The position numbers and the translations under genes were made by a program. Below are positions 3,190-8,013 of a DNA stretch of 8,520 nt, piece after piece. Source of the DNA: a virus (lineage: Duplodnaviria > Heunggongvirae > Uroviricota > Caudoviricetes); IMG/VR virus record IMGVR_UViG_2563367003_000003. One strand, given 5' to 3'. Every line of letters starts with the position of its first letter. Position 1 is the first letter of the stretch. The notes below the pieces were generated by a model. That model saw nothing but the letters and a program-made list of their open reading frames with translations, was not told where the DNA came from and ran no database searches.

Positions 3190-5865
3190 ATGAAATCTGA
3201 CATCAGAAAAGAGATTATTAACCGTCTTATCCGTGATTACAACTTCAAAGAAGAAAATAACTACCTCCGGTATGGTGTTTGTCCGCAATGTGGAAAGAAA
3301 GAGTTGTTTACCAGCCTTGAAAGGCCGTACATCGTACACTGCGGGCGTGAAAATAAATGCGGTACAGACCTGCTGACTAAAGAACTTTACCCGGATGTGT
3401 TTTCATCATGGTCAGATCGCTATATCAGTACGAAAGATGAACCATACGCAGCGGCGGCAGCTTATCTCCTGGAGGCACGCAATATTGCTACAGAGCCACT
3501 GAAGGGGGTATTTACCCAGGAGCGATACAAAGACAAGGAAAGCGGCGAACAGGCCGCTACTGTGCGTTTTACGCTGGCTGACGACGTGTGGTGGGAGCGC
3601 ATCATAGACCGACCGGAACGCTTCGAACGGAAGGCGAATTTTTCCGGCAGCTACAAGGGGTTGTGGTGGGCTTATCCGGGAGCAGATTTAAGCAAGGCCA
3701 AAGAAATCTGGATTTGTGAGGGTATCTTTGATGCCATCAGCCTTAACCAGAATGGCATTGCGGCCGTTTCTGTCATGTCTGCCGTGAGCTACCCTGATAA
3801 GGCACTGGAAGAGCTGGCGAAGCTGTGCGGGGATAATCCCCGTCCGGTTATCGTGTGGGCGCTGGATAACGGGCGTGCAGGTGAGCGTTACGCGAAAAAA
3901 CATGCAGAACGCAGCGCCGAAGACGGCTGGAGAACGGCAGCGGCGTTGCCAGGTAAAAACAACAATAAACGCGACTGGAATGATTTACACATCGCCGGAA
4001 AGCTGCGTGGCCATGATGTGAAAAGATACCGTTATTACGGTGATTTATTGCTGGCGAAATCTCCAAGAGATAAGGCACTAATAATGTTTTCCTTTCGTGA
4101 GCGGAAGGAATTTCATTTTACTTTTGATAACCGTGTTTTCTGGTTCAAGCTGGACATTGAGCGCCATATGAAGGCTGTTGAGCGTGTCATTAATGAGCGA
4201 AATGTTGATGAGGATGAAGCGCGCAAAATTGCACTTAAGGAATCTGGTGCAGTAAAAGAAATCGCAAACTGTAACCCAGCGCCGCTTTATTACATTCGAA
4301 ATAATGACACGGATGAAGCATGGTATTACTTCCGTGTTACGTTCCCGGATGGTGCTACGGTGAAAAACACCTTTACATCAGGACAATTAACATCCTCATC
4401 TGAATTTAAAAAACGCCTGTTACACGTGGCAAAAGGCGGTATTTATACCGGAACGACTACGCAGCTTGACGCATTAATAAAAAATGACCTTCCCGCAATA
4501 AAAGAGGTTATTGGTCAGGATTTTATCGGATACAACAAGGCGATTGGGGCATGGCTGTTTAATGATATTGCTGTTTACAAGGGAAAAACTTATGAAATCA
4601 ATGACGAGGATTATTTTGAAATTGATGGCATAAACGCAAAACCATTAAGCGAAAAACCCACATTACAGATTAACTACAAAAAACCGGATGAATTTACAGC
4701 GTCCTGGGTGGAAGATCTCTGGCTGGCTTTTGGTGAAAAGGGAATTATTACCCTGGCTTTCTGGTTGGGCTCCCTGTTCAGCGAACAAATCCGGGATAAA
4801 GAAGAATCCTTCCCTTTCCTTGAAGTCACCGGAGAGCCCGGAACGGGCAAATCAACATTGATTGATTTTTGCTGGCGGCTGTGCGGTCGTGACAACTACG
4901 AAGGAGTTGATCCAACCAAAGGATCAGAGGCGGGCTGGAAGCGCACCTTTGGACAGGTCGCCGGATTGCCTGTTGTTCTGATTGAAGCAGACCGGGGAGA
5001 CAATGCGCAAAAAAGAGGTGCGTTTGACTTCGATAACCTGAAAAGCCTCTATAACGGTGGCGGTATCGGTGTTCGTGGGGTTAAGGCCAACAATAACAAC
5101 ACCTATGACCCGGATTTTAAGGGCGCTATCGTGATTGCGCAGAATGCGCGGGTAAATGCCTCGCCGGCAATTATTGAGCGCCTGATACGCATATACACCG
5201 ATAAAAAACGCCATTCACCTGATACCCGACTGGCGGCGAGACGGCTGGAACTCTACCCCGTCGAGAAGGTATCGGGGTTTATTCACCGGGCGGTAAGTCA
5301 GGAACGGGCGATTATGCAAACGTTCCTGGAAGTATCGCCCGCTGAAACGGAACGCCTTTGCGGATGCGAAAATATTCGCCATCCCCGTATTGCCAAAAAT
5401 CACGCGCAACTTATCGCGCTGGTCAGGGCGCTGAAATGCGTTATCGATATCCCGGATGAATGGCTTGATGCCACATGTCTGGAACTGGAACAAATGGCAA
5501 CGGCGCAGGTTAAAGCGGCGGCGGCTGACTTGCCAGAAGTGATGGAGTTCTGGGAGGCGTTCGACTTCCTGGACGGCATAACAAAATACGGTGTAAACCA
5601 TTACGGCAAGGGATGCCGCGAAGGGATTGCTATCAGTATTCCGCAACTGGCACAGGCTGCCGCCATTCACCGCGTGGAGATCCGAACCGATCGCGAAATG
5701 ATTGAGTTGCTCGGAGCTGGGCGTTCCCGACCGTTGACAGGCCGTAAAACCATTCGTAGTGAGGTGTCCAGACAGGCAAACGCCGGAAAAGGAGTAGCCG
5801 AAGCCAGAGAGCCGGAAGTACTGAAATGCCGGATATTCAGTTACAAGGAGGTCACCGAAAAATGA
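3190..5865 (+). CDS. Bifunctional DNA primase/helicase, P4 alpha-like replication protein (zinc ribbon + TOPRIM-type primase + P-loop NTPase)
   Basis: Track ORF 3166-5865 begins with GTG inside the hairpin; the first ATG at 3190 has SD GGAG (3178-3181). Motifs: zinc ribbon CPQCG...HCGRENKCG (about nt 3279-3363), TOPRIM-like EGIFDAISL (about 3715-3744) with ALDNGRAG (about 3859-3882), Walker A GEPGTGKST (about 4832-4858), Walker B-like VVLIEAD (about 4970-4990). Architecture matches P4-family primase/helicases. Confidence 0.85.
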   Translation: MKSDIRKEIINRLIRDYNFKEENNYLRYGVCPQCGKKELFTSLERPYIVHCGRENKCGTDLLTKELYPDVFSSWSDRYISTKDEPYAAAAAYLLEARNIATEPLKGVFTQERYKDKESGEQAATVRFTLADDVWWERIIDRPERFERKANFSGSYKGLWWAYPGADLSKAKEIWICEGIFDAISLNQNGIAAVSVMSAVSYPDKALEELAKLCGDNPRPVIVWALDNGRAGERYAKKHAERSAEDGWRTAAALPGKNNNKRDWNDLHIAGKLRGHDVKRYRYYGDLLLAKSPRDKALIMFSFRERKEFHFTFDNRVFWFKLDIERHMKAVERVINERNVDEDEARKIALKESGAVKEIANCNPAPLYYIRNNDTDEAWYYFRVTFPDGATVKNTFTSGQLTSSSEFKKRLLHVAKGGIYTGTTTQLDALIKNDLPAIKEVIGQDFIGYNKAIGAWLFNDIAVYKGKTYEINDEDYFEIDGINAKPLSEKPTLQINYKKPDEFTASWVEDLWLAFGEKGIITLAFWLGSLFSEQIRDKEESFPFLEVTGEPGTGKSTLIDFCWRLCGRDNYEGVDPTKGSEAGWKRTFGQVAGLPVVLIEADRGDNAQKRGAFDFDNLKSLYNGGGIGVRGVKANNNNTYDPDFKGAIVIAQNARVNASPAIIERLIRIYTDKKRHSPDTRLAARRLELYPVEKVSGFIHRAVSQERAIMQTFLEVSPAETERLCGCENIRHPRIAKNHAQLIALVRALKCVIDIPDEWLDATCLELEQMATAQVKAAAADLPEVMEFWEAFDFLDGITKYGVNHYGKGCREGIAISIPQLAQAAAIHRVEIRTDREMIELLGAGRSRPLTGRKTIRSEVSRQANAGKGVAEAREPEVLKCRIFSYKEVTEK

Positions 5866-6872
5866 CGATAAAGAAGTTGGTTAACGGTAAGTTTGCTGTG
5901 GACGTGCGGCCTGCAGGAGCAGAAGGAAAAAGATTCAGGCGGCGATTTGATACTCGTGGTGAAGCAGTGGCGTATGAACGCCATGTTCTGATGCACTACC
6001 ACAACAAAGAGTGGGTCGAAAAGCCCATTGAACGTAAAGCGTTAAGCGATCTTCTGGAATTATGGTGGGCGTATCATGGCAAGAATCATCGTTATGGAGC
6101 GATGACGCGGGTAAGAATTGAAGCTGTTCTTTGTGATATGCGCGAACTTGGGATAAACAGAAGCGATCATTTAACCCGGAAAAATATTATCAGATATCGA
6201 CTTAAATTAATGAATCGTGGAATTAAACAGTCAACAGTAAATCGCTATTGTGCCATGATGAGCGGTTTCTTTGAAAAGCTGATTGATGCTGAAGAGTTTG
6301 CGGGTAATAACCCGTTTCGCGAGATACGTAAGTTAAACATTAATCAGCCAGAAATGGCTTATCTTGCACATGATGATATTTCCAGGCTAACCGCGCTTTT
6401 ATCTGGCGATAATCTTAAGGCTGTATTGTTGTGTCTGGCTACAGGTGGGCGCTGGGGTGAGATTGCCAATATTAAAGGTGAGCACATAATTGGCGGAAAG
6501 GTTATTTTTATGAAGACAAAGAACGGCTCAAGGCGGGTCGTTCCAATCGCTAAAGATCTTGAATCACTGGTCAAAGTAAAGGCGACCGGAAGATTAATGA
6601 AACCTAATTATGCAACTGTCAGAAGTGCAATAAGGACTGTGCGGCCTGATTTACCCGTCGGTCAGTCTGTGCATGTTTTACGGCATACCTTTGCCACTCA
6701 CTTTATGATTAATGGTGGAAACATCATCACATTGCAGAAAATACTAGGACACAGCACTATTCAGCAGACGATGACTTACGCGCATTTTGCACCGGATTAC
6801 CTGGCAGATGCCATGAGATTTAACCCGGTAGCCAACATAGTGATCACCGAAGAAAAAGAGCCAGCAGAGTAA
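5862..6872 (+). CDS. int: Tyrosine recombinase, P2-Int-family integrase, 336 aa
   Basis: N-terminus MTIKKLVNGKFAVDVRPAGAEGKRFRRRFDTRGEAVAYE and the catalytic region (GGRWGEIANIK; HVLRHTFATHFMINGGNIITLQKILGH; TMTYAHFAPDYL with the tyrosine nucleophile) closely parallel P2 Int as I recall it. Near-consensus SD AAGGAGGT (5845-5852). The ATG at 5862 overlaps the primase TGA (5863-5865) as ATGA. The track start at 5826 is an upstream in-frame extension. Confidence 0.9.
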   Translation: MTIKKLVNGKFAVDVRPAGAEGKRFRRRFDTRGEAVAYERHVLMHYHNKEWVEKPIERKALSDLLELWWAYHGKNHRYGAMTRVRIEAVLCDMRELGINRSDHLTRKNIIRYRLKLMNRGIKQSTVNRYCAMMSGFFEKLIDAEEFAGNNPFREIRKLNINQPEMAYLAHDDISRLTALLSGDNLKAVLLCLATGGRWGEIANIKGEHIIGGKVIFMKTKNGSRRVVPIAKDLESLVKVKATGRLMKPNYATVRSAIRTVRPDLPVGQSVHVLRHTFATHFMINGGNIITLQKILGHSTIQQTMTYAHFAPDYLADAMRFNPVANIVITEEKEPAE

Positions 6873-6901: not shown

Positions 6902-6927
6902 AGGTCAGTTTCCCGCTGACCTTTTTT
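6902..6927 (+). terminator. Rho-independent terminator downstream of int
   Basis: AGGTCAG (6902-6908), loop TTTCCCG, CTGACCT (6916-6922), then TTTTT (6923-6927). An A-rich run precedes it (CAAAAGA), so it may act in both directions. Confidence 0.7.
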
Positions 6928-7120
6928 GTTGGCCAGAACCAACGGTAACAGCAATGCAATGGTGGTCATATTGCAGTAGTGCCGCCATCAATTTTTTGCT
7001 TCCCCTGATTATCAGAAAGAGTCAAACAGTGGCGAGATACATTTCAATCACAGAGAGTTAATGAGAGTGATACAGAGTAAGTGGGTTTAATTAACATTTT
7101 AAAGGGTCGCGCTAAAGTTT

Positions 7121-7440
7121 GGGGGGGGATGCGCAAAGCGGTTACAACGGTTACAAATTTAAAATCACTTATTTTTGCATTATATATCAATACATTATAA
7201 CTGGTCGGATGAGTTACAAAAGCGGTTACAACGCGGTTACATGTAACCGTTTTGTTAGGTTACAGGCGGTTACAGGTTAAGTTTTTAATTGATTGATAAT
7301 AAAGTGCTTTTTGAAACCTGTAACCGTTGTAACCGCAGTGTAACCGCAAAGCGGTTACAAACAATATCCATTAAAATCATGCTGTTAAGTGGTGTTTTTG
7401 ACTGTTGTAACCGTTGTAACCGCTTTGCGCACCCCCCACC
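7121..7440. repeat. Iteron array of GGTTACA/TGTAACC heptamers around an AT-rich core, bounded by 36-bp near-perfect inverted repeats; candidate replication origin and/or att arm-site region
   Basis: Forward GGTTACA at 7140, 7149, 7224, 7235, 7258, 7268, 7353 (plus partial GTTACA at 7213); reverse TGTAACC at 7242, 7319, 7328, 7339, 7406, 7415. Left repeat 7121-7156 (GGGGGGGGATGCGCAAAGCGGTTACAACGGTTACAA) matches the reverse complement of 7405-7440 at 34 of 36 positions, with the inner 26 perfect. Internal palindromes GGTTACATGTAACC (7235-7248) and TGTAACCGCAAAGCGGTTACA (7339-7359). AT-rich segments at 7157-7210 and 7275-7318. Confidence 0.8.
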
Positions 7441-7663
7441 GGATTATGAGGCAGAGCCCCAAAACAACTGGCCTGACCTCTAACAAAAATGCAACATCAA
7501 TCATTGATTTTTTGGAGCTGTCAGTCACGGGGAGTTGCCCTGTTGTCTGGCAGAAAAATGAAGTATGTACATGCGCGGCGGGGATGGTAAAAAACGTAAT
7601 ACACGCGGCGCAGTTGCCATAAAAAATCTCTCAAAAGCACTCTTTTTGACGCTATTGTTCATC

Positions 7664-7690
7664 TGCACAAAAGTGCACAAATTTGCACAA
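7664..7690. promoter_or_regulatory. Three helically phased direct repeats of TGCACAA (10-bp spacing); candidate regulator-binding array
   Basis: TGCACAA at 7664-7670, 7674-7680 and 7684-7690; a fourth copy at 7756-7762. TTGACG (7646-7651) sits upstream and TAGAGT (7696-7701) downstream. Lies in a non-coding region upstream of the ogr-like gene. Confidence 0.4.
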
Positions 7691-8013
7691 TTTTTTAGAG
7701 TAACTTTTTGCCCATCCGGCCCAGTACTGGCGCGCCCGGAGGGCGATTTCGTGCGTGCACAAAAAACGGTGAGTTTTTCGCGCGCAGGTGACGGGGGAAC
7801 AGCACGCGTTTCAGGGGGTAAATTACATTTTCGCTAAAGGCTGCGGGAATGCCCCGACCGGGTTAGTTTTATCGCCAGCCAGAGCCGTTCTTACGGCAAG
7901 AGAGAACTGATACGGGGAATGTGACGAGTGAGCATGGGAACGGCGCGCCCGTGCGTAATACGCGGCGACTGCTGCGGGTTTATTTGATACAGCCAGAGGG
8001 GGGCGGCAGAAGA

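Follow-up and report, generated by a model that had tools for sequence, protein, structure and literature searches.

The Reps of the SaPIs are self-loading initiator-helicases whose C-terminal winged-helix domain binds iterons of 5–6 nt (PMC9371898). SaPI origins lie immediately 3′ of rep and contain 6–12 iterons, half of which are found on each side of an AT-rich centre, with at least two iterons on each side and the two sets pointing opposite ways (PMC9371898). The PICIs of Gram-negative bacteria are organised likewise, and the rep gene and ori of one of them, EcCICFT073, drive plasmid replication (PMC6092414).

We analysed a stretch of DNA of 8520 bp (the window) that is identical to part of a satellite-type island of about 12.7 kb that E. 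coli ETEC1747 carries between gcd and hpt. A conspicuous non-coding block of this island is built of GGTTACA heptamers, and our analysis, which is computational throughout, indicates that this array most likely serves a phage satellite of the P2-helper type as its origin of vegetative replication and is read by the C-terminal domain of the satellite’s own primase-helicase. Literature searches gave no description of the origins of these islands and of the related prophages, and no paper linking GGTTACA iterons to such elements.

The island starts with an integrase gene (int1, outside the window), followed by a hypothetical gene, an AlpA-like gene, the C4 and isrK RNAs and an Icd-like gene. Its middle part consists of small ORFs, the gene of an 891-residue Toprim primase-helicase, a second integrase gene (int2), a terminator-like hairpin and the array. 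It ends with a region that resembles non-coding DNA of P88-like P2-family phages, an Ogr/Delta gene, two hypothetical genes, of which one is oppositely oriented, a capsid gene of the P2 family and MazEF. The features upstream of the array that matter here are as follows.

3190–5865, + strand: gene of a bifunctional primase-helicase of 891 amino acids (Pfam Toprim_2/Toprim_3)
5512–5862, + strand: predicted C-terminal domain of this protein (residues 775–891), the proposed reader of the iterons
5862–6872, + strand: int2, a P2-type tyrosine recombinase of 336 amino acids (Pfam Int_N and Phage_integrase)
6902–6922, no strand assigned: terminator-like GC-rich hairpin with a T run, which ends the primase–int2 transcription unit upstream of the array

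A sequence-only reading of the window had counted 13 GGTTACA heptamers in the array, seven forward and six reverse, and an exact search confirmed both the numbers and the coordinates. There are 14 exact copies in the window, 13 of which lie inside 7140–7421; dinucleotide shuffles give a window-wide expectation of 0.95, with a largest count of 4 (0 of 200 shuffles reached 14). The 36-bp inverted-repeat caps with G8 and C6 ends that it had described were also recovered, and their arms (7121–7156 and 7405–7440, 36 nt each) are 94% complementary. The array comprises the following elements.

7121–7156, + strand: left cap, with the G8 run, a GCGCAAAG box and two forward iterons (7140, 7149)
7157–7215, no strand assigned: spacer 1, 76% AT, with an exact match to the IHF consensus, TATCAATACATTA, at 7185–7197 (+ strand)
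7212–7274, no strand assigned: central-left cluster, with AGTTACA at 7212, GGTTACA at 7224, 7235, 7258 and 7268, and TGTAACC at 7242
7275–7318, no strand assigned: spacer 2, 75% AT, with an exact match to the IHF consensus at 7286–7298 on the minus strand
7319–7359, no strand assigned: central-right cluster, with reverse copies at 7319, 7328 and 7339 and one forward copy at 7353
7360–7404, no strand assigned: spacer 3, 69% AT, with a AAAATCAT..GTTAAG box and a relaxed IHF match at 7375–7387
7405–7440, + strand: right cap, with reverse iterons at 7406 and 7415, a CTTTGCGC box and the C6 run
Starts at 7140, 7149, 7224, 7235, 7258, 7268 and 7353, + strand: forward GGTTACA, exact matches
Starts at 7242, 7319, 7328, 7339, 7406 and 7415, − strand: reverse GGTTACA, exact matches

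The array is thus laid out as four iteron clusters with three AT-rich spacers between them. It is quasi-symmetric yet polar: the iterons are ++ and −− in the outer pairs and, in the inner clusters, mostly + on the left and mostly − on the right, and the right cap (7405–7440) is the inverted repeat of the left one. The proposal of a symmetrical arrangement around an AT-rich core therefore holds as regards the quasi-symmetry but not as regards a single core, since three spacers were found. Two further heptamers within the array carry one mismatch each (AGTTACA at 7212–7218 and GGTTTCA at 7312–7318 on the minus strand). The TGTAACC at 7242 is a palindromic partner in the central-left cluster, where the palindrome GGTTACATGTAACC is set within mostly forward copies, and the iteron positions of this cluster are kept in alignment A4.

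In an alignment of 14 diverse arrays from at least six named genera, the iteron positions are conserved, the CGGAAA/TTTCCG cap boxes are invariant, a G/C run is found at both ends, and the boxes in spacers 2 and 3 are conserved. At the left-cap box, which reads GCGCAAAG in the window, most relatives have CGGAAA, and four positions are invariant across the 14 arrays. An Rfam search gave no match of the array to a known RNA family, and the array contains neither GATC sites nor DnaA boxes.

The spacers stand out against a window that is 55% AT overall. The exact IHF consensus WATCAANNNNTTR has two matches in the 8.5-kb window, only in spacers 1 and 2, and the sole additional match under relaxed conditions falls in spacer 3. 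The ATTGAT box of spacer 2 is present in 14 of 14 aligned arrays, a TCA in spacer 3 is invariant among them, and the AAAATCAT..GTTAAG box is conserved. Judged by base composition and motifs, spacers 1–3 are candidate unwinding and bending regions.

Loci related to the island (designated L) were retrieved from genomes and viral contigs by primase scans, and an array profile was built from nine arrays. Full arrays were found in 38 loci by the profile and in six loci fetched later by way of homologous primases or a DNA match, 44 in all. These loci represent at least six named enterobacterial genera and include satellites as well as full P2-like prophages, with the same four-cluster, three-spacer layout. 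All 44 arrays lie on the strand of a homologous Toprim primase-helicase gene (the profile scores about 200 bits on the primase strand versus 20–85 bits on the opposite strand), which makes the array polar and fixed relative to the primase gene.

The distance from the primase stop codon to the array is 166–350 bp in 19 Providencia/Proteus-type loci, which are mostly P2-like prophage contigs of 27–38 kb whose only P2-type integrase is encoded several kb upstream on the other strand. In L005 and L063, in which int2 comes after the array, the distance is 219 bp; in the satellites of E. coli and Salmonella, including the window, int2 intervenes and the distance is about 1250 bp. Klebsiella and Enterobacter loci without int2 have a distance of 800–1400 bp. 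The Evevirus-type phages, namely ESSI2_ev239 (L021, with a homologous array of CGTCACA/CATCACA iterons at 531–831) and the L106 prophage at E. coli pheA–raiA, do not carry the array beside the primase gene; here it is found past the tail genes, next to an acyltransferase moron and attR. In L106, it occupies approximately 31600–31930 at the attR end, and 21.6 kb separate it from the primase gene. No array was detected within 10 kb of the primase gene in the full P2-like prophages L103, L104, L111 and L113, and the profile had no match in the high-GC relatives (Pseudomonas, Ralstonia and Burkholderiales loci). At positions 9540–9750 of the Paraburkholderia locus L011, about 0.9 kb after the gene of a 46%-identical primase, GACGATG/CATCGTC repeats occur in both orientations, and this cluster may be an analogous origin in high-GC hosts.

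The int2 gene, whose start overlaps the primase stop codon (ATGA), separates the primase gene from the array in the window. Islands that share GGTTACA and have primases of about 90% identity encode int2 proteins that are only 42–59% identical in amino acid sequence; the array therefore follows the primase and not the integrase. The position of int2 varies as well: it is located on either side of the array (after it in L005) or several kb upstream. In L006, L007 and L107, int2 is absent and the array is kept, and in the Xenorhabdus island L105, the array stands beside a decayed int2 remnant (12668–12860). Probably, int2 is not part of the origin.

The array adjoins int2 and lies upstream of an ogr-like gene, matching the int–attP–ogr order of P2, and IHF-like sites occur in attP regions too. 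The array could on these grounds be the attP, or the arm-type binding sites, of int2, an alternative that the sequence-only reading had also raised. Because its crossover core is common to attB, a P2-type attP becomes divided into attL and attR once the element has integrated. The array, however, is intact in islands integrated at gcd/hpt, tRNA-Arg and pao, three chromosomal sites at which the island is ended by another integrase, and within prophages. The related islands at the other sites (tRNA-Arg and the pao locus) each have an int1-type integrase at their end; int1, not int2, therefore sets the integration site. The array does lie between an integrase gene and the ogr-like gene, as had been pointed out, but the adjacent integrase is a second, dispensable one and not the chromosomal integrase of the island. 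Furthermore, arrays exist without int2, int2 alleles of 42–59% identity share GGTTACA, the iteron type tracks a primase residue (see below), and in ESSI2_ev239 a classical P2-type attP, with TGTGGAC arm repeats, abuts the int gene and is distinct from the array. Synteny, the intactness of the array in integrated islands and the separate ESSI2_ev239 attP speak against an attP of the adjacent integrase, and such a function is very improbable overall. The spacer between int2 and the array contains no obvious arm-type repeats.

Further copies of int2 were found in L002 (7815–8816), L003 (7814–8818), L004 (7816–8817), L005 (9370–10335), L108 (12699–13685), L109 (7010–8005) and L110 (7366–8346). The gene is apparently intact, in satellites already equipped with an integrase at one end, and its flanks and the last 40 or so residues are conserved despite its hypervariability. 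It might serve in multimer resolution or provide a second route of integration, both of which are conjectures. A palindrome, TGCAAT-N9-ATTGCA (6955–6975), is located just 3′ of int2 and the terminator, is kept in L002–L004 and is a candidate core-type site of a recombinase. Imperfect direct repeats flank the array at 6946–6998 and 7481–7514 (TAACAGCAATGCAA / TAACAAAAATGCAA and CATCAATTTTTTG / CATTGATTTTTTG), and the right-hand repeat is partly kept beside arrays in loci without int2 (CAATCATTGAT in L006). Such repeats might belong to an extended origin or to a promoter, or might have been left behind when int2 was inserted.

The proximity of a tyrosine recombinase gene to a segment of about 250 bp between inverted repeats also brings to mind an invertible switch, flipped by int2 between the 36-nt repeats and controlling the downstream genes. 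The array was found in 61–66 of 5426 complete E. coli genomes, always on the chromosome and never on a plasmid, and the matches listed are all single full-length pieces in one orientation. No flipped copy is present among these listed E. coli genomes or among the 44 arrays, which all have the same polarity, and arrays also occur without int2. We attach next to no probability to a switch.

The terminal inverted repeats and the length of about 320 bp are likewise those of a MITE-like mobile insertion, the other alternative suggested previously. This is scarcely credible in view of the genome comparison, which gives one syntenic copy per island. The low number of genomes with the array, its absence from plasmids and the single full-length matches listed rule out a MITE and show no sign of inversion. 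All five E. coli loci examined for context lie inside a satellite island, the array is syntenic with the primase gene across genera, and no target-site duplication was found. Among the contexts examined (satellite islands and P2-like prophages), there was no array copy at an unrelated locus without the primase. The median number of places per E. coli genome is 1 and the highest is 2 by megablast and 4 by blastn; the extra places probably include the reverse-strand self-match of the array at the same locus.

Several other parts of the island resemble known phage modules. Rfam matches above the gathering scores identify isrK and C4 antisense RNA at 1772–1853 and 1879–1966, where they directly precede the Icd-like ORF and extend into it; together they form a P1/P7/P4-type RNA immunity module. 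Positions 7663–7829 match, at about 81% identity, DNA that is non-coding or annotated ‘hypothetical’ in the P88-like P2-family phages (Escherichia phages P88, vB_EcoM-569R5 and 500465-2, record positions 133–299 in the last) and are probably a cos/packaging region copied from this helper type. They are contained in an ORF annotated as a 90-residue ‘hypothetical protein’ (7565–7837), which may be spurious. The P2 cos 19-mer is absent from the window. The P2-family major capsid gene and the MazEF pair of the island are located outside the window (L001, 22347–23618 and 23662–24254). Having its own capsid gene and MazEF, and no sid or psu, the island differs from canonical P4-like satellites. The GC skew along the island is uniformly positive and uninformative.

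The proposed reader of the array is a protein with an N-terminal Zn-ribbon and Toprim primase, an AAA+/P-loop helicase core and a C-terminal winged-helix-like domain (residues ~782–883). AlphaFold modelled the full-length protein with a pLDDT of 87.8 and the C-terminal domain alone with a pLDDT of 91.3; the topology of the modelled domain is helix-strand-helix-helix-strand-strand. The best PDB matches of the primase-helicase in a Foldseek search were SCCmec Cch (5dgk, E = 2e-12) and SaPIbov1 Rep (8tch, E = 6e-11), followed by DnaG polymerase domains and SaPI PriRep1/PriRep5. In these models, the predicted fold of the helicase and C-terminal domain resembles the SaPI Rep initiator, with SaPIbov1 Rep as the best match for these two parts. 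The C-terminal domain alone had no significant Foldseek match, and a PDB sequence search with the primase gave no match, so that the solved Reps are without detectable sequence similarity to it.

By tblastn, the closest phage relatives of the primase are primases of P2-like Peduoviridae, led by ESSI2_ev239 (52% identity) and followed by Ralstonia RSY1 and Pseudomonas phiCTX/Dobby; P4 was not among the 40 phage records matched. The protein had been labelled P4-alpha-like, an assignment that we would not retain: with P4 alpha, BLASTP picked up the Walker A motif (27 aa, E = 2e-4), the Toprim motif (97 aa, 32% identity, E = 0.007) and nothing else, with no similarity between the C-terminal domains, and it is SaPI Rep and SCCmec Cch that match the fold predicted for the helicase and C-terminal domain. 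When the last 192 residues alone were used as query, the homologue search returned nothing more than fragments.

The heptamer changes in a coordinated way from relative to relative (GGTCACA, CGTTACA, CCTTACA, YATTACA, GGTTACT and CRTCACA). Near the C-terminus of the primase-helicase, 110 homologues share a motif, P-x-X3-x-X5-C-W, in which X3 and X5 are hypervariable. In the window, this motif contains Val877 (5818–5820) and Lys879 (5824–5826), which lie on β3, the last strand of the domain, in P-E-V-L-K-C and, being two positions apart, are on one face of the strand. The motif pairs with the iteron type: PEV.KC is found with GGTTACA, PDTLKC and PETLKC with GGTCACA, PDTFRC and PETFRC with CRTCACA, PDVLRC with CGTTACA, PEVIEC with CCTTACA and [NS]EVQHC with YATTACA. 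In the Providencia group, four of about 890 primase columns split GGTTACA from CGTTACA loci, and all four are within the last 15 residues. Residue 881 (5830–5832), directly beside the co-varying residues, is Arg in the window, L016 and L023–L027 and a nearly invariant Trp elsewhere in the family, changing C-W-[IV]-F to C-R-I-F.

Over the 41 primases whose arrays are known, only one column of about 900, residue 877, separates TCACA from TTACA iterons: Thr goes with C at base 4 and Val, Gln or Arg with T. The split occurs in four independent lineages, in which the nearest relatives of opposite type within this set are 93, 74, 60 and 59% identical; for the Salmonella lineage, a TTACA relative at 81% identity was also fetched afterwards. 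Two predictions were made before the DNA was looked up, and both came true: a PETLKC protein had GGTCACA iterons, and a PDVVKC protein, 81% identical to the Salmonella primase of the GGTCACA type, had GGTTACA iterons. Residue 879 correlates more loosely (Lys with GG, Arg with CG/CR, Glu with CC and His with YA), with the exception of L108, in which Arg is found with mostly GGTCACA. Linkage between the 3′ end of the gene and the array could contribute to this co-variation. It is insufficient as an explanation, since the pairing at residue 877 persists across four independent switches and in L106, where the array and the gene are 21.6 kb apart.

These pairings could amount to a simple, evolvable heptamer code in which residue 877 specifies base 4 (Val or Gln for T, Thr for C) and residue 879 tends to specify bases 1–2 (Lys, Arg, Glu and His for GG, CG, CC and YA, respectively), and which P2-like phages and the satellites with the same replication module would diversify, so as to insulate their origins from, or capture those of, one another. 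We offer this proposal tentatively, as one whose chances fall a little short of even. If it is true, origin specificity would be predictable from sequence and re-programmable by point mutation. A testable hypothesis is that V877T switches the preference from GGTTACA to GGTCACA, which would give an insight into how self-loading initiator-helicases read their origins.

The co-variation also bears on whether the array is a platform for another protein, such as an Ogr/Delta activator, AlpA, a partition protein or a helper-phage factor. In other elements, repeat arrays do act as operators or as centromeres, and an ogr-like gene is close by. The Ogr-type binding site is TGT-N12-ACA, and the spacing of the heptamers is unlike it. 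There are no partition genes. Where Ogr was found in E. coli-type GGTTACA loci (seven), it is 98–100% identical, and the Ogr sequences display no pattern by iteron type, albeit in a weak test. The sole perfectly co-varying column is in the primase C-terminal domain, in a column-by-column screen that covered the primase only. A platform of this kind is, in our estimation, distinctly unlikely.

Recognition by the primase-helicase would also be expected of a cis element at which initiation does not take place, i.e. a crr-like enhancer or a copy-control (handcuffing, incompatibility) array acting on an origin elsewhere. The iteron block immediately 3′ of the alpha gene of P4 is crr, and the P4 origin is 4.5 kb away. 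Tandem arrays are known from Providencia-type phage contigs: L009, L039, L040, L047, L017 and L041 contain two full, or extra partial, arrays, sometimes of different iteron type (CGTTACA beside GGTTACA), and in L009 the arrays follow the primase gene at 8751–8895, 9006–9315 and 9401–9693. These extra arrays may be recombination scars or control arrays, and it is the latter that they recall in the present context. Against an origin elsewhere, the island has no second iteron cluster, as the array profile has one match and L001 has just two isolated heptamers outside the array, and the array is equipped with AT-rich spacers and IHF-like sites in the manner of a complete origin. We regard a crr-like or control function as unlikely.

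The leading suggestion of the sequence-only reading, an origin for the adjacent primase/helicase, is accordingly the one that position, comparison, co-variation and structure prediction support. Combining these findings, we infer the following model of initiation at the array, which would be bidirectional. After induction, the Toprim primase-helicase would bind the heptamers via its C-terminal winged-helix domain, with residues 877 and 879 on the face of β3 reading base 4 and, less certainly, bases 1–2. The oppositely oriented iteron clusters that flank the AT-rich spacers would position helicase rings facing opposite ways, and the IHF-like site in each spacer would bend the DNA and aid melting. 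As the array lacks DnaA boxes, the helicase is proposed to load itself in opposite directions without DnaA, after which the fused primase would make the first primers.

An origin at this position would explain what a conspicuous non-coding block does in P2-like prophages and in a widespread class of satellite islands of enterobacteria. One type of replication module, with differing iteron specificities, would serve both the satellite and a group of P2-family phages, which bears on helper–satellite cross-talk and incompatibility. It also sets the origin apart from the neighbouring hypervariable second recombinase, which merits a study of its own.

Compared with known systems, the array shares with the P2-type attP (P2, 186 and ESSI2_ev239) its location near P2-type integrase and ogr genes and the IHF-like sites. 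It differs in that the ESSI2_ev239 attP consists of TGTGGAC arm repeats flanking a core, and in that the array is never split by integration. The initiators of theta-plasmid iteron origins (pSC101, R6K and the RepA type of pPS10) are not helicases and need DnaA and DnaB/DnaC; the array, in contrast, has no DnaA boxes, and its putative initiator has its own helicase and primase.

The likeness to P4 ori/crr is closer. Both elements are satellites of P2-type phages whose initiators have the order Zn-ribbon, Toprim, P-loop helicase and C-terminal origin-binder, both use short iterons in both orientations, and both have an iteron block just 3′ of the gene near an integrase. The P4 type I iteron read on its other strand, GGTGAACA, even resembles GGTTACA. 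Nevertheless, P4 uses an octamer (TGTTCACC/GGTGAACA) and the island a heptamer, and the array profile has no match in P4, which bears out the earlier remark that the two iterons are unlike. Furthermore, P4 uses two separated cis elements, ori and crr, whereas the island has one array and no second cluster.

The SaPI/PICI origins (SaPIbov1, SaPI1, SaPI5 and EcCICFT073) share with the array short iterons (5–7 nt) in approximately 6–13 copies that are opposed around AT-rich DNA, and a (primase-)helicase initiator with a specificity-setting C-terminal winged-helix domain, the latter assigned here by fold prediction and co-variation (PMC9371898, PMC6092414). In the window, the corresponding elements are 13 heptamers and two near copies, opposed, three spacers of 69–76% AT, and a protein that is modelled as an initiator of the AAA+/SF3-like hexameric helicase type with a C-terminal winged-helix domain, whose specificity is attributed to this domain by co-variation (41 proteins, four lineages). 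SaPI/PICI origins are located 3′ of the initiator gene; the array is close to it in the 19 Providencia/Proteus-type loci and in L005/L063, is separated from it by int2, a recombinase gene, in the window, and is distant in the Evevirus-type phages. The SaPI/PICI origins have two iteron sets and one AT-rich centre, whereas the array has four clusters, three spacers, IHF-like boxes and G-run/CGGAAA caps. In addition, the primase part is of the DnaG/Toprim type here, and this origin family is shared with full-size P2-like phages. By its sequence features, the array would belong with the iteron origins of the SaPI/PICI/P4 kind, its specificity being other than that of P4.
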